Shown here piece after piece: positions 8,408-59,189 of a DNA stretch of 64,000 nt. This DNA is from a virus, in the IMG/VR virus record IMGVR_UViG_3300045988_123588. One strand, written 5' to 3'. Position 1 is the stretch's first letter; every line of letters begins with the position of its first letter. The position numbers were made by a program, and so were the translations under genes. The notes beneath the pieces are model-generated. The model saw only the letters and a list, made by a program, of their open reading frames with translations, made no database searches and had not been told where the DNA came from.

Positions 8408-8434
8408 ACTATCATAACCTTAATCAATAATTAT

Positions 8435-10312
8435 ATGCCACAGACTCCAAGAGTAAGGTTCAATTTTAAGAACCTGAATGTACAATCGAGTGTACCTCTG
8501 CTGGGTGTAATCAATGTAGTAGCTCGTACTACTAAGGGCCCGTTTGAGGACCCTCAGGAATTGATTGCAACTCCATCACAGTTCACTCGAATCTTTGGTT
8601 CGGAAATAGTTCCGGACGGTTCGGTATCAAACATCATGAAAGCCCTTGAAATGGGTGCAAAAGTCCGGGTATCCCGAGTAGCTGGAGCTGGGGCTACCTA
8701 TGGTTGGGCAAAGCCTATGTCGGTAACACCAACTGGCCGGGCAGTACCATCTATATCAGTACCAGATGAGTCTTCTGTAATCTCGATAGTAATATCTGAC
8801 CCGAGTGGTGCAGAGAATAGCCTGGCAATGCACATGGCTATACGTACCAAAGAAGCAGGCTCACCAGTACTGGATGATACGGGAGTAAATCTTAATCGTC
8901 CTTTCTATCTGAAACTGAATATGTCTACGGAACCAACTCTCCGTGCAAGCATCATTCAGTATGGAGCAAGGGATGAAGCTTCCAATGTACCCACGTATGA
9001 CAGCATACTCAATGAAATGCTGTTTTTCTCGGCTGTATCAGCAAACACTACTGAGGGAGTAACTAACCCCTCTATCAACGTGAACACTCTTCAGAACTTC
9101 CTGGACAATGCTCCTAACATTACCTTCGAAGCTATACAGGGTAAAGAGGGAGATGGTCAGGGTACTATGAAGAGCCTGGCAACGGGTATACAGACCATGG
9201 AAGATATCATATCTATCCTTCATCAGTTCTCTAATTGGAACTCGATGATTGCTATAGGTAAGATTACTTCCGGAACTGTAGATGCCGAAGAACCCAGCGA
9301 TTCCAATGTATACATGGAATGCTCCGAGGGTAGTGCAGGTACAACTCCAACGGCGGACGAGTGGCTATCGGCTTATCAGGCCAGCAAAGCTTACTACGAA
9401 GCATACTCGGTAATACTCTCTCACATTCATCAGCACTTGCCAACGGATTATACAAAAGTATACATCTCAGTAGCAGCCGATGTGCATAACACATTCGAGA
9501 ACATGCTGTATGTGGAAGTACCCAAGTATGCTCCCGATACCCGTATTCCGGCAACTCCAGAAGAGACCCTTTCGGCACTGAAGAGTCTGGTACAGACCAT
9601 AGGTGCAAAGAAAGAAGTAGCATATTTCGGCGGTGGTATCAAATACTACAACGAAAACGGTTCTCTCCAGAAATGTGATGTGCTCGGGTCTGTAATCGGA
9701 CTCGATGCTATCTGTGCTTCTACCTACGGACCCTGGTATTCATTCTCCGGCATGAATCGCGGTGTAATTACTTCAGCACTCGGTCCGGTGATGAAGAATC
9801 TGGGTGGACCAGCTGAAGTAGACACTCTCAACCAGTTTGCTCAGTGGTACATGAACCTGTTCGTAATCAAGAACACTCGTACTCAGGGTCAGCGTACTAT
9901 GCTATGGCATGGTTTCACTTCGAACCCCATAGACGATTCAGAGAAATTCATCTCCATAGTTCGTCTCAATCTCTATCTGAAGAAAAACCTCCGGCCGATT
10001 CTGGAGAGCTACATCGAAGAGCCAAATACCTTCGAGACGTGGAAACTCATTTACCACGAAGCAAAAGAAATTCTGGATGACCTGCAGACCCGTAATGCCA
10101 TCACTTCCTATGAATGGATAGGTGACCAGGATGCTCAGAGTTACGAAGAGCTTCAGATAAACAATGAGGCCGACGTTCGACAGGGTAAATATCGGGCTCA
10201 GCTGAAGTACAAGGAGGTTGTTCCAATGCAGGATATCGAAATGGATGTTATCATCGACATTGCCATAAACAAGAGCACTGGTGAAGTATCCATCTCTGCC
10301 CAGAATAACTAA
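8435..10312 (+). CDS. Contractile tail sheath protein
   Basis: 625 aa, lying directly upstream of a 155-aa tube-sized gene. The C-terminal segment GSVIGLDAICASTYGPWYSFSGMNRGVI resembles the conserved sheath motif (vaG..a..d...g.w.apag). Codon usage is G/C3-rich. Confidence 0.75.
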   Translation: MPQTPRVRFNFKNLNVQSSVPLLGVINVVARTTKGPFEDPQELIATPSQFTRIFGSEIVPDGSVSNIMKALEMGAKVRVSRVAGAGATYGWAKPMSVTPTGRAVPSISVPDESSVISIVISDPSGAENSLAMHMAIRTKEAGSPVLDDTGVNLNRPFYLKLNMSTEPTLRASIIQYGARDEASNVPTYDSILNEMLFFSAVSANTTEGVTNPSINVNTLQNFLDNAPNITFEAIQGKEGDGQGTMKSLATGIQTMEDIISILHQFSNWNSMIAIGKITSGTVDAEEPSDSNVYMECSEGSAGTTPTADEWLSAYQASKAYYEAYSVILSHIHQHLPTDYTKVYISVAADVHNTFENMLYVEVPKYAPDTRIPATPEETLSALKSLVQTIGAKKEVAYFGGGIKYYNENGSLQKCDVLGSVIGLDAICASTYGPWYSFSGMNRGVITSALGPVMKNLGGPAEVDTLNQFAQWYMNLFVIKNTRTQGQRTMLWHGFTSNPIDDSEKFISIVRLNLYLKKNLRPILESYIEEPNTFETWKLIYHEAKEILDDLQTRNAITSYEWIGDQDAQSYEELQINNEADVRQGKYRAQLKYKEVVPMQDIEMDVIIDIAINKSTGEVSISAQNN

Positions 10313-10333: not shown

Positions 10334-10801
10334 ATGGCAGGAGCTAAAGTAAAAAACCCGAGGAAGAAGTTTTTATGGCAAATAATATTTGTCAAGCATC
10401 CCATCAACCCACTCCTCTTTCAGAAGGTAACTATACCTGAGATAAGCATAGAACAGGTTGCACATGGGGATGTAAACTACGACGTAAAGACCGGTGGCAG
10501 GGTATCAGTTGGTAACTTAACTGCATCTAAGCTGGAGACAACTTCTGGCTCAGATACCTGGTTATGGGACTGGCTGATGTCAGTACAGGATATGCTGCTC
10601 GGGGGAGGTTTAACCCCAAGTCAGTACAAGGAAACCGTACTCATCAATGAGCTGGCCGAGGATGGAGTATCTATCCTTAATTCCTGGACTTGCACCGGAG
10701 TATGGCCTTGCAAGGTAAACGGACAGGACTTAGACCGAATGAGTTCGGACAACACTCTGGAGGATTTGGAGTTCTCAGTAGACACCTGCGAGAAGCTGTA
10801 A
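10334..10801 (+). CDS. Tail tube protein
   Basis: 155 aa with an ATGGCA start, immediately after the sheath gene and followed by a strong terminator. Confidence 0.65.
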   Translation: MAGAKVKNPRKKFLWQIIFVKHPINPLLFQKVTIPEISIEQVAHGDVNYDVKTGGRVSVGNLTASKLETTSGSDTWLWDWLMSVQDMLLGGGLTPSQYKETVLINELAEDGVSILNSWTCTGVWPCKVNGQDLDRMSSDNTLEDLEFSVDTCEKL

Positions 10802-36302: not shown

Positions 36303-36376
<74 letters not shown>

Positions 36377-36465
36377 CTTATGAATCTTTACTTTGCGCTG
36401 TGGACAACGAGTCCTGATTCATTCCCAGGTACTGGACGGTAGTGATATAGACTGGTACCTAATTT

Positions 36466-36540
36466 ACGGAAGTAGCACAGTCCGGTCAGTGTACTTGCTT
36501 TGGGAGCAAGGGGTCGCAGGTTCGAATCCTGTCTTCCGTA
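36466..36540 (+). tRNA. tRNA-Pro (UGG)
   Basis: The cloverleaf is acggaag/cttccgt acceptor, gcac/gtgt D stem, cttgc-ttTGGga-gcaag anticodon arm and gcagg-ttcgaat-cctgt T arm. Confidence 0.85.
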
Positions 36541-36651
36541 CAAGGGCTATATGCTGGGTCATAACAGGAGATACGACCTCCAGCTAGCAATGGGCAATAA
36601 CCTGGTACGAGATACCAAAACCCATAATTAAAGTCGAAGGCTATAGCTTTA

Positions 36652-36694: not shown

Positions 36695-36780
36695 GCTCGG
36701 ATGGTGAAATAGGTAGACACGCCGGACTTAAAATCCTGTGACCAGCAATGGTCGTGCGGGTTCGATTCCCGCTCCGAGTA
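36695..36780 (+). tRNA. tRNA-Leu (UAA), type II with a long variable arm
   Basis: The sequence begins gctcggatggtgaaataggtagacac, as E. coli Leu tRNAs do. The anticodon loop is ctTAAaa, the variable arm is gtgaccagcaatggtcgt, and the T arm is gcggg-ttcgatt-cccgc. Confidence 0.85.
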
Positions 36781-36795
36781 CAAAATACCCTGAAC

Positions 36796-41205: not shown

Positions 41206-41994
41206 ATGAAAAAGGAAAAAACCGTTAAGAAAAAAGGTAGTGTAATGACTACCCGAGAAAAAATGCTTGCCCGGAAGAAAGACCTGGAAAAGCGTAGTGG
41301 AGGTGGTGGAATAATCTACCCGAAAGAAGGAACTACAAGAGTACGTATCAAATCACGAGGAGCAGACGAAGAACTGGGAATCGAGATTGTTCAATTCTAT
41401 CTCGGACCTAAAGAGGGAGGTATTATATCTCCGGCTACTTTCGATGAGCCATGTCCTTTCATGGAGAAGTTTCAGGAGCTTAAGAACTCCGATGACCCAG
41501 ATGATAAGGCATTGGCCTCGAAATTGGTGCCCAAGAGAAAGTATCTCGTAGGGGTACTTGGGTACAAAGATACCAAGGGTAAGGAAATTGACCCTGACAG
41601 GGTTGATAAGCCTATGATGGTACCACGCTCGGTATATCAAGATATTATCGACCTTTACCTCGACGAGGAGGATTGGGGTGACATGACTGACCCCGTAGAT
41701 GGATATGATATCAAGATAACCCGCACCGGTACTGGCAAGAATGACACCAGTTATTCAGTATCCCCTTGCCAGAAAACCAAGCTGGACAAGAAGTATCGGG
41801 GAGAGGTGGACTTGGAGAAAGCAATACGAGCAAATATCCTTTCCTACGAGGAGCTCGAGGAGAAGCTGGCATCATTCCTAAATGAGGGAGATGATGACGA
41901 TGAAGATGAAAGACCTCGTAAGAAATCTTCTTCCAAAACCAAGCTAGCGGATAAAAAGAAAAAGGGGAAGAAGAAATATAAGGGTGATATCTAA
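41206..41994 (+). CDS. ssDNA-binding protein candidate
   Basis: I prefer the ATG 41206 start over TTG 41185. The N terminus is Lys-rich, the C-terminal tail is acidic then basic (GDDDDEDERPRKKSSSK), and codon usage is G/C3-rich. The gene lies between the polymerase and the recombinase. No motif is verifiable by eye. Confidence 0.45.
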   Translation: MKKEKTVKKKGSVMTTREKMLARKKDLEKRSGGGGIIYPKEGTTRVRIKSRGADEELGIEIVQFYLGPKEGGIISPATFDEPCPFMEKFQELKNSDDPDDKALASKLVPKRKYLVGVLGYKDTKGKEIDPDRVDKPMMVPRSVYQDIIDLYLDEEDWGDMTDPVDGYDIKITRTGTGKNDTSYSVSPCQKTKLDKKYRGEVDLEKAIRANILSYEELEEKLASFLNEGDDDDEDERPRKKSSSKTKLADKKKKGKKKYKGDI

Positions 41995-49707: not shown

Positions 49708-49738
49708 TTTTGCAACTTCAAGAAATTTGATTATATTT
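49708..49738 (+). promoter_or_regulatory. Bacteroidota-type promoter TTTG-N19-TATATTTG
   Basis: TTTG is at 49708-49711 and TATATTTG at 49731-49738. The -7 box and leader form a 28-mer identical to 57387-57414. Confidence 0.7.
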
Positions 49739-49779: not shown

Positions 49780-50346
49780 ATGCGCAAAAGTAAGAAAAAA
49801 GACAAAAGACCGTTAAAGCTTAACAAGGAAAAGCTAAAGGTCATGGGAAGTGGGTTAGAAAATATGACCTACAAGGACATGAAGAGAAGAGCAGTTTCTC
49901 TCGGCATGCCATTCCCCGATGCTTGTTCAGCTGATTACAATGGACTATCATCATGGATTCACCATTCGGATAATAAGCCGGACAATGCTCTTATCGATGA
50001 ATATGATAAGTGGATGGACCAGCAATTAGAACTTGCTGGATATCCCAAGGATGACCCAATGAGGAATTATCAACTCAATCTTGGGTTCATCGGTGAAGAT
50101 GCAGTCACTAAGCAGAAAAAGACCAAACGGGTAAAGGGGTTGGAAAAACCCAAAAAGCCGAAGAAAGAGAAGGATGACAATGGTCTTTGGAAAGGAACTA
50201 AGAAATCCTACGTATTCGAATTAACCTATAAAGGGTTGTCAATCGATAGAATCACCCGGAGAGTGCAAAAGAGATTCCCAGACGCCAAGGAAAAATCCAT
50301 TCAGCAATGGTATCGGGCAGCACTCCGTAAACAAAAGAAAGAGTAA
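49780..50346 (+). CDS. Basic DNA-binding-like early protein
   Basis: 188 aa, K/R-rich, with a HeH-like segment (MTYKDMKRRAVSLGMPF). It is the first gene after a consensus promoter. Confidence 0.5.
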   Translation: MRKSKKKDKRPLKLNKEKLKVMGSGLENMTYKDMKRRAVSLGMPFPDACSADYNGLSSWIHHSDNKPDNALIDEYDKWMDQQLELAGYPKDDPMRNYQLNLGFIGEDAVTKQKKTKRVKGLEKPKKPKKEKDDNGLWKGTKKSYVFELTYKGLSIDRITRRVQKRFPDAKEKSIQQWYRAALRKQKKE

Positions 50347-51903: not shown

Positions 51904-52413
51904 ATGGCAAAGAAAAAAGCTGCAGCAAAAGAGGTAGAACGCAAGGTTCTCTCTAACGGGGTAATTCTCATCAAATACGATGACGATTCCTATGCACTCC
52001 TGACTCCCATCTCGGCAGAAGACGCCGAAGAAATTTTCGGTGGGGAATCCGAGGATTCGGACGACGAGGACGAAGAAGACGAGGATGAAGATGAGTCGGA
52101 TGACGAAGATTCCGATGAAGACGAAGACGAGGAGGATTCTGACGAAGAAGAAGACGAGGACGAGGACGGCGATGAGGATGAAGAGGACGAAGATGAAGAG
52201 GATGACGACGAGGTAACCCCCGAGGACCTGGCCGGCATGGACTTCGAAGCTCTCGAAGACCTCTGCGACGACAAAGAACTCGAAACTGACCCCGACGAAT
52301 TCGACGAGGAAGACGTCGAGAAACTCCGCAAAGCGGTGGCCAAGGAACTGAACATCACCCTGCCCAAGGCAAAGGCCGCTTCCAAGAAGGACACCAAGAA
52401 AAAGAAAAAGTAA
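51904..52413 (+). CDS. Poly-acidic protein with a ~65-residue D/E tract (DNA-mimic or chaperone candidate)
   Basis: 169 aa. The N terminus is MAKKKAAAKE and is followed by a short beta-like segment. ESEDSDDEDEEDEDEDESDDEDSDEDEDEEDSDEEEDEDEDGDEDEEDEDEEDDDE comes next, then a HeH-like segment (LAGMDFEALEDLCDDKELE) and a KKKKK tail. Codon usage is G/C3-rich. Confidence 0.7.
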   Translation: MAKKKAAAKEVERKVLSNGVILIKYDDDSYALLTPISAEDAEEIFGGESEDSDDEDEEDEDEDESDDEDSDEDEDEEDSDEEEDEDEDGDEDEEDEDEEDDDEVTPEDLAGMDFEALEDLCDDKELETDPDEFDEEDVEKLRKAVAKELNITLPKAKAASKKDTKKKKK

Positions 52414-52442
52414 GGGTCCTTCTGACTATAACCAAATCCAAG

Positions 52443-52508
52443 GGTCCCCCGGGAATCGCTAAATGCTTAAACTCCATAGGCTATGGCCAAACGTTCGGGG
52501 GACCTTTT
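52443..52508 (+). terminator. GC-rich long-loop hairpin plus T tract
   Basis: ggtcccccg (52443-52451) pairs with cgggggacc (52496-52504). The 44-nt loop contains an inner palindrome ccatag-g-ctatgg. It is followed by tttt. Confidence 0.5.
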
Positions 52509-52536
52509 ATAACAAAACCATTTAATCAAATATAAC

Positions 52537-52962
52537 ATGGCAACGAAGAAAAAGGCAGCAGAAGCAAAAGCTGCAAAGAAAGAGGAATCGAAAAAGGGCG
52601 GTAAGAAAGAACTGACCGCTGAAGAGAAGAAGGCTAAGCGAGAAGCGATGAAAGAACGACTCAAGAACCGGGCACCGGGTCAGCGACCGAACAGCAAACA
52701 GTGCGACATCATCGACCTGGGCGGCGGCAACGTTGCAAAGACCTTCGCCATGAACGTCCGGAAGTACGGAGTTCTCATCACCTCGGTCGTAACCGACAAG
52801 GATGGCAAAGTGATTGCCGTCTCGAATGCCACCATTCCGGGGGTATCGGTTAAATCCAAGAAAGAGCACGGCACTCTGGTCCCCAAGGTACCCGGCATGG
52901 GCAAGAAAGGGAAAGCCGCCGAAGCTGAGGATGACGAGGAGGATGAAGACGATGAGGAATAG
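52537..52962 (+). CDS. Lys-rich N-terminus / acidic C-terminus small protein
   Basis: 141 aa: MATKKKAAEAKAAKKEESKKGGKK... with the tail ...AEAEDDEEDEDDEE. Codon usage is G/C3-rich. Confidence 0.65.
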   Translation: MATKKKAAEAKAAKKEESKKGGKKELTAEEKKAKREAMKERLKNRAPGQRPNSKQCDIIDLGGGNVAKTFAMNVRKYGVLITSVVTDKDGKVIAVSNATIPGVSVKSKKEHGTLVPKVPGMGKKGKAAEAEDDEEDEDDEE

Positions 52963-53007
52963 GTCCTGAGCACCCAATCCTACGTACATCAACACTTGAG
53001 TCATACA

Positions 53008-53044
53008 GGGGAGGCCATCCGAAGGTTTAAGGGTGGGCCTCCCC
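53008..53044 (+). terminator. GC-rich hairpin
   Basis: ggggaggcc pairs with ggcctcccc around a 19-nt loop. The T tract is weak. Confidence 0.5.
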
Positions 53045-53059
53045 ACTTTGTATAGATAT

Positions 53060-53287
53060 ATGCAAGACGACGACAGCATCATATATCTGGCATTATGCAA
53101 TCAGCTACAATCATACCAGCTGTTGCTAGAGGAAGAAAAAGATATCTCTGAAGAAAATAGAATGATGACAGAGTATATTATCTCTAGAACAGAGGAATTG
53201 ATTGATAAGTATGCCCAGAAAATAGGAAGTGACACCACTATTCAAAGACCTCAATGGGACAATTTAACACCTCAGTCAAAGGGTTGA
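53060..53287 (+). CDS. Hypothetical protein
   Basis: I moved the start to ATG 53060 because the track GTG start at 53033 lies inside the hairpin. 75 aa. Confidence 0.45.
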   Translation: MQDDDSIIYLALCNQLQSYQLLLEEEKDISEENRMMTEYIISRTEELIDKYAQKIGSDTTIQRPQWDNLTPQSKG

Positions 53288-53313
53288 TATATCGGATTAA
53301 AGAACTAACCAAA

Positions 53314-53634
53314 ATGGTTCAAGATATAGATACAAGGTTATCTATGCCTGGACTGTCTCCTGGTAAAAGGCAAGCTTTAATCAAAGATAAGACCCTAAAA
53401 ATAGGTAAGGTAAAATCTCTGGCAAAGCGCATAGAAGATTTAACAAATGGAAACATCTTAACCATAACTTTTGAAAACAAGGGCTCTGGTGAAAGGTTTA
53501 GGATTACATACACCAACATATCTCAGGATGATGCTGTTGCTCATCTTAAGTTGATGGCAAATCTTCAGGGAATGGAAATAATCATCTCAGAGATAAAGGA
53601 AGTACAGACCAAAAACTCCTTAACCAAACTATAA
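53314..53634 (+). CDS. Hypothetical protein
   Basis: ATG 53314 avoids overlap with the previous gene; ATG 53254 is the alternative. Confidence 0.45.
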   Translation: MVQDIDTRLSMPGLSPGKRQALIKDKTLKIGKVKSLAKRIEDLTNGNILTITFENKGSGERFRITYTNISQDDAVAHLKLMANLQGMEIIISEIKEVQTKNSLTKL

Positions 53635-53683
53635 ACATGCAAAGGTAATTCAAACTAATTTTCATTTAATCAACTCAACAACA

Positions 53684-54247
53684 ATGGCAAAAGACATCAG
53701 CAAAAAAGACCTGGCTGCAAAGAAAGCCCGCCGGGCTCAGAAGGAAATGCTGGCCTACATGGAAGAGAACGACCTCGACCCCAAGAAAGATTGGACAGGC
53801 CACAAGAAGCATGGAAAGAAAATCCAGGCCTGGGTAGACATCATCAATCTCGGGAACAAAAAGGCCAGAGCAGCTACGGAAGAGAAGGCCGTAGAAAAGG
53901 CCAAGAAAAACCAGAAGCCCGAAGCCCATCCTAAGAAGGAAAAGGTCACAAGTACACCCAATGCTTATGACTACCCAACAGTGGACGGCAAGGAGATGAC
54001 CTCTGACCAGAAGAAAAAGTACCGTCAGAAGATGCGTACTCTTCTGAAGACCATGTCCAAAGAGAAAGCAGAGGCCGAGGGCAAGAAGTATGCTGCAGAG
54101 TTGGCATCAGGTGCTCCGGCAGCTGCTCCCAAGAAAGAGAAGAAGGCAAAGAAGGAAGAGCCGGCCAAGGAAAAGAAGGCCGAGAAACCTTCGAAAGAAG
54201 GCAAGGACAAGAAGAAGAAAAAGAAGTCTAAGAAAGAGGAGGATTAA
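53684..54247 (+). CDS. Histone-H1-like lysine-rich protein
   Basis: 187 aa with the tail AAPKKEKKAKKEEPAKEKKAEKPSKEGKDKKKKKKSKKEED. Codon usage is G/C3-rich. Confidence 0.65.
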   Translation: MAKDISKKDLAAKKARRAQKEMLAYMEENDLDPKKDWTGHKKHGKKIQAWVDIINLGNKKARAATEEKAVEKAKKNQKPEAHPKKEKVTSTPNAYDYPTVDGKEMTSDQKKKYRQKMRTLLKTMSKEKAEAEGKKYAAELASGAPAAAPKKEKKAKKEEPAKEKKAEKPSKEGKDKKKKKKSKKEED

Positions 54248-54278: not shown

Positions 54279-54312
54279 CCCCGAATCTATACAAGGTTCG
54301 GGGTTCTTTGTT
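54279..54312 (+). terminator. Intrinsic terminator
   Basis: ccccgaa pairs with ttcgggg around an 11-nt loop, followed by ttctttgtt. Confidence 0.7.
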
Positions 54313-57460: not shown

Positions 57461-57916
57461 ATGAAAAAGAACAAGAAAAATCAGGCTCAGAAAACTGAAA
57501 AGACCAACCTGGTAGAGGGAATCAACAACCTCATCGAAGAGAAGACCCAGAAGGTCGAGAAATCCAAGAAGGCTCTGAAGGCAGAGGTCAAAAAGGAGGA
57601 AACTCCTGAAGCGGCCAAGGAGAAGAAGGTCAAGAAGACCAAGAAGGAGAAACTGGTCGATAAGACCAAGAAAAAAGTCGAAGCCAATCTCGTAGAAGAG
57701 GTGGTAACGAAACGGGAGGTTAAATACATCTACCCCGCCGACTGCGAAGACACCCTTTCCAGGAAAAAGTTCCGGCAGCAGGTCCGAAACAAGATTCACC
57801 AGCTGGAGCTGGCCATGCTCCGAATCGAGAACCAGGATTCGAAGGAGTTCAAGAAGGCCAAGAAGGAATACCTGGAGTACAAGAACCAATTCGTCAAGGA
57901 ATCCGTTGCAATCTAA
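57461..57916 (+). CDS. Lysine-rich protein
   Basis: 151 aa (KKNKKNQAQKTEK...KEKKVKKTKKEKLVDKTKKKVE). Codon usage is G/C3-rich. Confidence 0.65.
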   Translation: MKKNKKNQAQKTEKTNLVEGINNLIEEKTQKVEKSKKALKAEVKKEETPEAAKEKKVKKTKKEKLVDKTKKKVEANLVEEVVTKREVKYIYPADCEDTLSRKKFRQQVRNKIHQLELAMLRIENQDSKEFKKAKKEYLEYKNQFVKESVAI

Positions 57917-57934
57917 TCTTTCATAGTAGGAGAG

Positions 57935-57961
57935 GGGGCACAGGGCTAAGGCTCTGGCCCC
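57935..57961 (+). terminator. GC-rich hairpin without a T tract
   Basis: ggggc(a)cagggc pairs with gctctggcccc around a taag loop. Confidence 0.4.
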
Positions 57962-57995
57962 TCAGTATAATCACCTTTTAACGATATGAAAGATT

Positions 57996-58679: not shown

Positions 58680-59189
58680 ATGAAAACTGCAGAGTATGTA
58701 AAACAGTTTAAGTTGGACACCCCGAATTACAACTTTAACCGGGAGAAATTCATGGAGGCCTTCGGCCAAGAATTTAAGGACCGAATTGAGGCAATGATGA
58801 CAGCCTGCAAAAAGATGCAGGTGCAGTTTACCTATGAAAAATTCCTTCATGCCATCAAGGAACAGCAGGACAAGTTTTGGCAAATTTCCAAGAAAAAACT
58901 TGGAGAGCCATTATCCGATGGCTTATTCTCAGCTTTCTTTGCCCTGCATGTAATACCTCTCCGGGCAAATCTCTTTCCCAACGTCCATGCGGAAATAGAA
59001 GAAAGACGTCAAAAGGCCATTGAAAGAGAGGCCAAGTTTAGGGCCGAAGAAGAGGAACGGCAAAGAGAAGCCAAAGAGAAAGCGGAGAAAATGAAACCTT
59101 TATTAGATGCCGTAATTGCCTATGGAGCTGCCCAAAATTTGGCAAAGCAGGGCAAGGTAAAGGCTACTAAAACCAAGGGGAAACGGTAA
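58680..59189 (+). CDS. Hypothetical protein with a charged helical C terminus
   Basis: 169 aa. The C-terminal segment is EERRQKAIEREAKFRAEEEERQREAKEKAEK. Confidence 0.5.
   Translation: MKTAEYVKQFKLDTPNYNFNREKFMEAFGQEFKDRIEAMMTACKKMQVQFTYEKFLHAIKEQQDKFWQISKKKLGEPLSDGLFSAFFALHVIPLRANLFPNVHAEIEERRQKAIEREAKFRAEEEERQREAKEKAEKMKPLLDAVIAYGAAQNLAKQGKVKATKTKGKR

Follow-up and report, generated by a model that had tools for sequence, protein, structure and literature searches.

Our analysis leads us to conclude that four charged proteins, here called P1 to P4, are encoded by real genes that are vertically inherited and under purifying selection; that their codon usage indicates very high, capsid-grade expression; and that, judged from the database searches described below, they are conserved genes with no family assignment that form a clade-specific set. 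A further and more tentative conclusion, to which we give somewhat less than an even chance, is that P1–P4 are made early and in abundance and act on nucleic acid, as three putative DNA-coating polycations and a putative polyanionic mimic or buffer.

Conservation and codon usage of the four genes

The window, a stretch of 64,000 nucleotides of viral DNA, contains the four ORFs exactly where the earlier note had placed them (Table 1). Their order is constant in about 65 related gut-phage genomes (L001, L002 and 63 IMG/VR loci, each gene being counted wherever the locus spans it); P1 was found in all relatives, and dN/dS for P1–P4 lies between 0.03 and 0.19. When P1–P4 were compared by tblastn with 50,697 GenBank phages, MT121964 was the sole match. 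A megablast match to an Erwinia phage was discarded as GA-rich low-complexity similarity. Scans of P1–P4 against Pfam, PHROGs and NCBIfam, and of 16 P1 and 15 P4 orthologs against Pfam, returned only compositional or sub-threshold matches.

Table 1. Coordinates of the genes and flanking elements in the window
Feature	Position	Strand	Basis
Host-type (Bacteroidota) promoter TTTGCA-N-TATATTTG, nearest upstream of P1–P3	49709..49739	+	pattern search
TTTAATCAA element, 16 nt upstream of P1 start codon	51888..51896	+	
P1, polyacidic	51904..52413	+	ORF, dN/dS, presence in all relatives
Long GC-rich stem after P1, 14 bp around structured 40-nt interior, then UUUUAU	52440..52507	+	
TTTAATCAA element, 16 nt upstream of P2 start codon	52521..52529	+	
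P2	52537..52962	+	family alignment, predicted structure
GC-rich hairpin after P2, GGGGAGGCC...GGCCTCCCC, then ACUUUGUAU	53008..53044	+	
Two small AT-rich ORFs between P2 and P3	53060-53287, 53254-53634	+	conserved in relatives, not codon-optimized
TTTAATCAA element, 19 nt upstream of P3 start codon	53665..53673	+	
P3, lysine-rich	53684..54247	+	family motifs, AlphaFold2 model
Canonical intrinsic terminator ending unit, 10-bp stem + T tract	54279..54303	+	
Tandem host-type promoters before P4	57249-57280, 57363-57394	+	pattern search
P4, lysine-rich	57461..57916	+	ORF, ortholog comparison, dN/dS
GC-rich hairpin after P4, without U tract	57934..57962	+	

The gene content and order of the window fit Flandersviridae, in which a structural block is followed by a PolA replication module and then by a locus of unknown ORFs (PMC8008677). 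This candidate family comprises gut myophages of about 75–88 kb with Bacteroidota hosts; the relatives of our phage stem from contigs of 75–88 kb, and the window carries Bacteroidota-type promoters. The source phage is probably a Flandersviridae-like myophage of gut Bacteroidota, judged by gene content and order and by promoter type. A host search by genome scan returned just two MAG contigs, which are probably mis-binned. Flandersviridae-like phages are among the human-gut phages detected most often, none has been cultured, and their post-replication locus is wholly unannotated (PMC8008677); our literature search likewise found neither a cultured member nor a proteome.

Codon usage was measured as GC3 at codons other than those for K, D and E across 90 genes (mean 0.35, sd 0.10). 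The top five genes are P4 (0.76), P1 (0.70), P2 (0.68), the capsid gene (0.64) and P3 (0.56); by our own calculation, the chance that four named genes would all fall among the top five is about 2e-6. Relative codon preferences of the four genes follow those of the capsid gene over 59 codons (Pearson 0.86), and GTA and GCA are retained in both. The codons avoided in P1–P4, TTA and CCA, are those served by the phage's own tRNAs. The likeness to capsid codon usage claimed in the earlier note is thus borne out, whereas the likeness to the sheath gene was overstated, the sheath bias being mild (GC3 0.46). The AT-rich neighbors at 53060–53634 are indeed unbiased (GC3 0.36–0.39). The shared top ranks and preferred codons also agree with the very high expression that had been proposed, and P1–P4 appear to be the phage's most strongly expressed non-capsid genes.

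A different source for the GC-rich third positions would be foreign origin through recent horizontal acquisition, or a compositional artefact such as the avoidance of poly-A in lysine codons. Lysine-rich genes might shun AAA runs, and a local GC peak at 52–53 kb (0.52) looks island-like. However, the bias is equal or stronger at codons other than K, D and E, the K-rich neighbors at 49780 and 50352 show no bias, and the codons used are specifically those of the capsid gene, down to the retained GTA and GCA. The flanking regulatory motifs, moreover, are native to the phage. The earlier note had itself raised recent horizontal acquisition as a threat to its reading; when this was checked, the bias proved to be confined to third positions, and P1–P4 orthologs, syntenic in all relatives, lie above local background in nearly all lineages, shifting in step with the differing background GC of each. 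Because the orthologs shift likewise relative to their own genomes, recent transfer is excluded. The codon, synteny and ortholog-shift results together effectively refute the artefact or recent-transfer explanation, which we regard as scarcely credible.

Promoters, hairpins and timing of expression

The seven canonical TTTGCA..TATATTTG promoters are all found at 49.7–62.9 kb, and the structural and replication modules have none. The P1–P4 region, which the structural module precedes by about 28 kb, is thus the sole part of the window with host-type promoters, which points to early, non-structural expression over virion packaging. The promoter at 49709 opens an operon that runs from 49780 to P1, with no plus-strand terminator-like site before P1; together with its leader it has 28–29 nt in common with the P4 promoter. 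Upstream of P4, a TTTG..TATATTTG promoter is present in 11 of 11 diverse relatives. No recognizable promoter of their own was found for P1–P3. A TTTAATCAA/CTTAATCAA upstream element is common to these three genes and the sheath gene, and a related AACCTTTAAT element upstream of P1 is kept in distant relatives. We infer that P1–P3 are probably expressed early, but late expression is also possible, because they have no promoter of their own and share TTTAATCAA with the sheath gene.

These data bear on whether the basic proteins could be virion-internal, an option that the earlier note had offered. Inside the head they would neutralize or condense the DNA, with the acidic protein as a core- or scaffold-like filler, and the whole set would be expelled together with the genome, in the manner of the T4 internal proteins and acidic internal peptides. 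The capsid gene alone matches P1–P4 in both degree and kind of codon optimization, the upstream element of P1–P3 also stands at the sheath gene, and in T4, too, the internal-protein genes sit apart from the head module. Nevertheless, location in a host-promoter early region some 28 kb from the structural block weakens this option, as do the conserved host-type promoters of P4 and the lack of any PHROG structural match, and we consider it unlikely.

As previously described, GC-rich hairpins follow P1, P2 and P3, and a fourth near 57935, after P4, lacks a T tract. All stay in place in relatives while their sequence diverges; a canonical terminator scan accepts the third alone. The stem after P1 may end transcription or may act in RNA processing or stability, and relatives L001 and L028 have an equivalent 16-bp stem of different sequence. 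The hairpin after P2 is kept in relatives, with U tracts. Each gene had been thought to form its own terminator-bounded unit; this holds for P2, which has two flanking hairpins, but not for P1, which has none upstream, or for P3, whose interval also contains the two small AT-rich ORFs. An Rfam scan of 49–59 kb gave nothing above threshold.

Architecture of the charged proteins

P1 has 169 amino acids, of which 39 are D and 40 are E; its net charge is -58 and its pI 4.05. A K-rich N-terminus leads into a conserved small N domain (residues 10–46). The D/E tract that comes next is variable, the C module behind it (residues 104–155, MDFEALEDLCDDKELETDPDEFDEEDVEKLRKAVAKELNITLPK) is again conserved, and the protein ends in a K tail. 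The uninterrupted acidic run reported earlier is real, although shorter than the 65 or so residues claimed: the longest unbroken [D/E/S/G] run covers residues 46–103 (58 residues), and the protein stays acid-rich on to about residue 137. Profile support for the supposed 'HeH-like' helix was lacking, as HeH, SAP and Rho_N profiles gave no match at E <= 1 in 16 P1 orthologs. Across near-identical and close relatives the acidic tract ranges from 17 to 72 residues, and such a spread among near-identical phages argues against a tight stoichiometric partnership.

In being small, strongly acidic and encoded in an early region, P1 resembles T7 Ocr, ArdA and SPO1 Gp46, the last of which inhibits HU through DNA mimicry (PMC8892312). 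Those proteins are folded, with a fixed charge geometry, whereas the acidity of P1 lies in a low-complexity tract of varying length; neither the window P1 nor its 16 orthologs matched an Ocr or ArdA profile. P1 also recalls nucleoplasmin and other acidic histone chaperones, with its N domain, poly-D/E tract and basic C tail, and with lysine-rich proteins encoded alongside. Yet there is no homology: the Pfam Nucleoplasmin profile, which describes a pentameric beta-sandwich core, did not match P1, whose N domain has just 37 or so residues. The setting is a bacterial virus, and charge covariation with the putative partners was negative (see below).

P2 (141 amino acids, net charge +7) has the Lys/Ala-rich head and acidic tail (AEDDEEDEDDEE) that the earlier note had seen in its translation. 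Its N tail is basic and made of Lys/Ala; then come a helix, the motif NRxxGQRxNSKQ, a six-strand beta domain, the motif KSKKxHG and the acidic C tail; both motifs are invariant in the family, and the beta domain is predicted with confidence (pLDDT 86–91). A P2 profile run against 1.84 billion representatives gave 47 matches, all within the clade or spurious, and by this measure the family does not extend beyond this phage clade. An apparent fusion of a MarR-HTH to P2 (P0380) was discarded as an assembly chimera because it comes from a 1.7-kb contig at 1x coverage with an ABC transporter adjoining. The combination of basic region, folded core and acidic C tail is also that of T4 gp32, T7 gp2.5 and HMGB1; in P2, however, the predicted core is a six-strand beta meander, and the model showed no OB-fold or HMG-box when compared with PDB and BFVD, where its sole significant match was an uncharacterized BFVD homolog. 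A separate SSB homolog is encoded by the phage (41206–41994).

P3 (187 amino acids, 52 K, net charge +25) had been likened to linker histones. Its K-rich tail (residues 144–187), disordered with pLDDT below 50, upholds part of that likeness, and P3 and P4 share KKAKK-type Lys/Ala-rich low-complexity tails with H1 and Hc1/Hc2. Homology is another matter. In P2, P3 and P4, neither Pfam (E <= 1) nor NCBIfam gave a match to linker-histone, Hc1/Hc2 or HU profiles, and where H1 has a winged-helix globular (GH1) domain, AlphaFold2 predicts for P3 only four helices (7–28, 44–75, 107–123 and 126–141). Because P3 is all-helical and the winged helix is absent, we conclude that it is not a linker histone. 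The family motifs LDPxKDW..HGKK and YDYPxVDGxEMT..KKKYRxKMR fall on predicted helices, and a C-terminal KEED is conserved. The P3 model had no fold match in PDB, and PDB sequence searches with the P2 and P3 family profiles returned nothing.

P4 is, as proposed, a fourth Lys-rich protein, with 38 K in 151 amino acids and a net charge of +17. Its N half is K-rich and variable, and its C domain is conserved (NLVEEVVTKREVKYIYPADCxDTLSRKKFRQQVRNK..LELAMLRI..SKEF). P3 and P4 have only a weak motif in common, and neither BLASTP (E = 4e-4) nor hhalign (E = 0.012, probability 3.6%) established homology or paralogy between them.

The K-rich helical motif KK[YF]RQxxR is superficially like the bS21 motif RRFKR, and Bacteroidota phages often encode bS21. 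The lysine-rich proteins might have rRNA or mRNA as their targets, either taking over translation or serving as RNA chaperones like phage bS21, with P1 as an RNA mimic; an unusual conserved element 10–20 nt upstream of the start codon in highly expressed genes of this phage would fit such a role. We rejected bS21 homology for both proteins, since hhalign of the P3 and P4 families against manually entered S21 sequences gave probabilities of only 0.06–0.1% and there was no Pfam Ribosomal_S21 match. An RNA- or ribosome-directed role seems to us very unlikely.

A candidate role on nucleic acid

The explanation that we tentatively favor is that P1–P4 are largely disordered polyelectrolytes that would be made in very large amounts from a region read early by host RNA polymerase. 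In each of P2, P3 and P4, disordered Lys/Ala-rich tails are predicted to adjoin a folded module that is small and conserved. These three proteins may bind nucleic acid nonspecifically and so serve as nucleoid-associated proteins made by the phage, coating or compacting its own DNA or that of the host. The acidic C tail of P2 resembles those through which gp32, gp2.5 and HMGB1 regulate themselves or recruit partners. The P1 polyanion could act as a nucleic-acid mimic, either buffering the polycations on their way to DNA or titrating host DNA-binding proteins, and the hairpins after each gene would end transcripts or stabilize their 3' ends. Nucleic-acid binding by P2–P4, like any interaction of P1 with the polycations or with the host, is putative. 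No DNA-binding or DNA-mimic family was matched, by sequence or by fold, in searches of Pfam, PHROGs, NCBIfam, PDB and fold databases.

There are precedents for abundant early phage proteins that bind or mimic DNA, such as T4 MotB, whose early gene lies in a dispensable region (PMC6070864), and the HU inhibitor Gp46 of SPO1 (PMC8892312). MotB, phi29 p6 and SPO1 TF1 are small, very highly expressed and non-structural, and coat DNA with little specificity. They have no sequence or fold relation to P2–P4, which instead have long Lys/Ala-rich disordered tails and novel small modules and in which DNA coating is putative. Among the observations that sit against the proposed model are that the phage already has an SSB and that the charge of P1 does not covary with that of P2–P4.

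The charges themselves were compared across 50 genomes. The summed mean charge of P2–P4 is +46 against a P1 mean of -52, and the net charges of P2, P3 and P4 are tightly conserved (sd 1.7–3.3), but there was no covariation between P1 and P2–P4 (rho 0.23, p 0.12). This rough balance of means, together with extreme, opposite and mostly disordered charge blocks and a high expression level, would suit proteins that build condensates. On this view the oppositely charged disordered proteins would come together as complex coacervates, either alone or with nucleic acid, and the resulting membraneless compartment would organize transcription or replication of the phage. SPO1 Gp27, a phage-encoded transcription factor that has disordered regions and organizes nucleic-acid transactions, is reported to drive phase separation (PMC13401047); it has no homology to P1–P4, for which condensates are speculative. 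The charges do not covary, the rough balance of means may be a coincidence, and we think condensate building quite improbable. It is a similarly long shot that P1 and P2–P4 form coacervates with nucleic acid as an early, charge-driven 'proto-chromatin' compartment of a Bacteroidota phage. If the coacervate reading were true, the genome could be shielded from host nucleases or replication and transcription could be concentrated, and the hypervariable length of the acidic tract would tune condensate properties.

Overall, what appears to be the highest non-capsid expression, universal presence in the clade and absence of relatives elsewhere make it probable that P1–P4 play a role central to Bacteroidota infection. 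The genes are convenient markers and good candidates for heterologous work in Bacteroides. If the proteins do coat DNA, they would constitute a phage-encoded chromatin-like system of disordered polyelectrolytes, and if P1 proves to be a DNA mimic that is disordered and tunable in length, anti-defence mimicry would reach beyond folded proteins.

Four charged proteins of a gut myophage

The window, which covers the greater part of a myophage genome and includes replication and recombination genes for a DnaB-like helicase, PolA, SSB, a UvsX-like recombinase and SbcC, runs from a structural block through a PolA replication module to a stretch of uncharacterised ORFs. Such an arrangement agrees with the candidate family Flandersviridae, whose members are uncultured but abundant in the gut and infect Bacteroides, Parabacteroides and Prevotella (PMC8008677). 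The sole GenBank phage relative, MT121964, is an unannotated human-faecal record with 80% nucleotide identity; homologs of the genes studied came from 75-88 kb contigs. Two clade contigs (L067, L068) lie inside Firmicutes MAGs labelled Dysosmobacter and Clostridium, which is probably mis-binning and no evidence of host.

All four ORFs described in the earlier note were found. The polyacidic P1 (169 aa, 79 D+E, net charge -58, pI 4.05) does contain an uninterrupted acidic tract, although its D/E/S/G run is 58 residues (46-103) rather than the ~65 claimed; net charges of P2, P3 and P4 are +7, +25 and +17. P1 orthologs retain an N domain of ~37 residues and a C module, MDFEELEDLCDDKELETDPDDFDEEDVEKLRKAVAKELGITLPK, followed by a K tail, and between the two the acidic tract ranges from 17 to 72 residues (ortholog net charge -19 to -71). 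Tract length differs even among phages ~93% identical elsewhere (>90%; e.g. L027:6419-6805 and L024:6245-6796), a hypervariability that slippage at GA-rich triplet repeats could produce, and that would also fit a polyanion whose length is weakly constrained or under diversifying selection.

P2 combines a variable Lys/Ala head, a helix, invariant NRxxGQRxNSKQ and KSKKxHG motifs, a six-strand beta domain that is predicted with confidence, and an acidic tail; its family has just 47 representatives among 1.84 billion. P3 has four predicted helices bearing LDPxKDW..HGKK and YDYPxVDGxEMT..KKKYRxKMR motifs, then a disordered, K-rich tail whose last residues are a conserved KEED. P4 joins a variable, K-rich N half to a conserved C domain with YIYPADC..SRKKFRQQVR, and weakly resembles P3 in a shared YxYP...KK[YF]RQxxR. 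Searches of P1-P4 against Pfam, PHROGs and NCBIfam, of the P2 and P3 families against PDB sequences, and of the P2 and P3 models against folds (PDB for both, BFVD for P2) gave no match to a known family. The HeH-like label proposed for P1 has no profile support, and P3, described as H1-like, has no winged helix and is therefore not a linker histone. On L066 (ENA ERZ504687 NODE_8576, 1705 nt), a contig with 1x coverage, a MarR-type HTH appears fused to a P2-like core (P0380) beside an ABC-transporter gene; we rejected it as a probable assembly chimera.

The order of P1-P4 is identical in MT121964, in L002 (a distant relative, 31% GC) and in 63 IMG/VR loci, wherever the locus reaches, and dN/dS is 0.03-0.19 in comparisons with unsaturated dS. 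The four are a well-defined orphan gene set, universal in the clade.

Codon usage and its origin

Without K, D and E codons, GC3 is 0.76 in P4, 0.70 in P1, 0.68 in P2, 0.64 in the capsid gene and 0.56 in P3, the top five among 90 genes (mean 0.35, sd 0.10). The four genes favour CTC/CTG, ATC, TCG/TCC, ACC, CAG, TTC and AAC, avoid AGA/AGG, TTA and CCA, and keep GTA and GCA; these preferences are specific, and more than mere GC-richness. They match those of the capsid gene (r = 0.86). The codon bias claimed earlier is thus strongly confirmed, as is its likeness to the capsid gene, but the sheath gene, also invoked, is just mildly shifted. The three phage tRNAs serve A-ending codons, and most phage genes prefer TTA and CCA. 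Because these bulk genes favour tRNA-served codons and the capsid gene and P1-P4 avoid them, usage is two-tiered. Such capsid-like optimisation supports the earlier inference of very high expression.

The lysine-rich neighbours at 49780 and 50352 lack this bias, so avoiding AAA runs does not explain it. Recent horizontal acquisition, which the earlier note had named as the competing source, is ruled out by syntenic orthologs: their GC3 exceeds local background in nearly every lineage, and the size of the shift tracks lineage. Because orthologs shifted in step with their lineages, we conclude that the bias evolved in place under selection.

Further lysine-rich proteins, encoded at 49780-50346 and 58680-59189 (K+R 0.25 and 0.21; intermediate GC3, 0.47 and 0.49), may belong to the same functional group; the first has a conserved MTYKDMKRRAVSLGMPF motif, and its gene a host-type promoter. 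Long antisense ORFs on the minus strand, 51990-52397 (135 aa, poly-Ser) over P1 and 52522-53100 (192 aa) over P2, are side effects of GC3 richness in the sense frames; a naive longest-ORF caller takes the latter in place of P2.

Promoters, hairpins and leader elements

Canonical Bacteroidota promoters number seven, all intergenic and all within 49.7-62.9 kb, the window's last 14 kb; the structural and replication modules have none. Judged by these promoters, the last 14 kb would be a host-RNAP (early) region. Two of the seven precede P4, where 11/11 diverse relatives also have one, and 49780 and P4 have ~28 nt (TATATTTGCAATAGGAAATAAGAAATAA) in common across promoter and leader. P1-P3 lie between the promoters at 49709 and 54344, and we found no terminator-like plus-strand site between the former and P1.

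Each gene does have a 3' hairpin, retained with different sequence in relatives; similar ones also follow the capsid gene and further genes with high expression. In place of the separate terminator-bounded units proposed earlier, these features are most simply read as an early operon transcribed by host RNAP, with hairpins inside it that attenuate or stabilise.

P1 and P2 each have an exact copy of TTTAATCAA 16 nt before the start codon, and P3 has one 19 nt before it; the sheath gene has CTTAATCAA at a distance of 16 nt. This element occupies the Shine-Dalgarno position upstream of highly expressed genes, and distant relatives keep variants of it ahead of their P1, P2 and P4 orthologs. Because the P4 copy falls within the 5'UTR, it may be a translation signal and not a promoter. 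Its sharing with the sheath gene means that P1-P3 may yet be expressed late. TTTAATCAA or AACC(T/A)TTTAA also occurs 10-20 nt upstream of 57461, 57996, 62353, 26691 and 21848.

Coordinates of features in the window
Feature	Position	Strand	Remark
Major head protein	151-1260
CTTAATCAA before sheath gene	8419-8427
Tail sheath	8435-10312
Tail tube	10334-10801
tRNA Met(CAT)	36303-36377
tRNA Pro(TGG)	36466-36541
tRNA Leu(TAA)	36695-36781
SSB	41206-41994
Bacteroidota-type promoters	49709, 54344, 57249, 57363, 60452, 61761, 62827	+	TTTGCA-N19-21-TATATTTG
TTTAATCAA before P1, P2, P3	51888-51896, 52521-52529, 53665-53673
P1	51904-52413	+	polyacidic
Hairpin 3' of P1	52440-52507
P2	52537-52962	+	basic head, acidic tail
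Hairpin 3' of P2	53008-53044
P3	53684-54247	+	lysine-rich
Hairpin 3' of P3	54279-54303		sole canonical terminator of the four
P4	57461-57916	+	lysine-rich
Hairpin 3' of P4	about 57934-57962

Possible functions

Taken together, the results support the view that the early region yields four disordered polyelectrolytes in bulk. The functions that we infer for them are nucleic-acid-directed, which analogies would favour: T4 MotB (PMC6070864), SPO1 Gp46, a mimic that inhibits HU (PMC8892312), and the way charge is distributed in gp32, gp2.5 and HMGB1. P2-P4 would be phage nucleoid-associated proteins coating DNA, and P1 a polyanionic mimic or buffer. Mean ortholog charges almost cancel (P1 -52 ± 10 vs P2+P3+P4 +46 ± 4); across 50 genomes they show no covariation (rho 0.23, p 0.12), so a stoichiometric partnership of P1 with P2-P4 is unsupported. 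The capsid-like codon usage would also suit virion-internal proteins, a possible role that the early-region context disfavours. That P1-P4 build a coacervate or condensate seems improbable; it is the most novel option, and SPO1 Gp27 is a recent precedent (PMC13401047). We rejected a ribosome-directed role based on homology to bS21. P1-P4 are an orphan set in a major group of gut phages, and are worth experimental follow-up.
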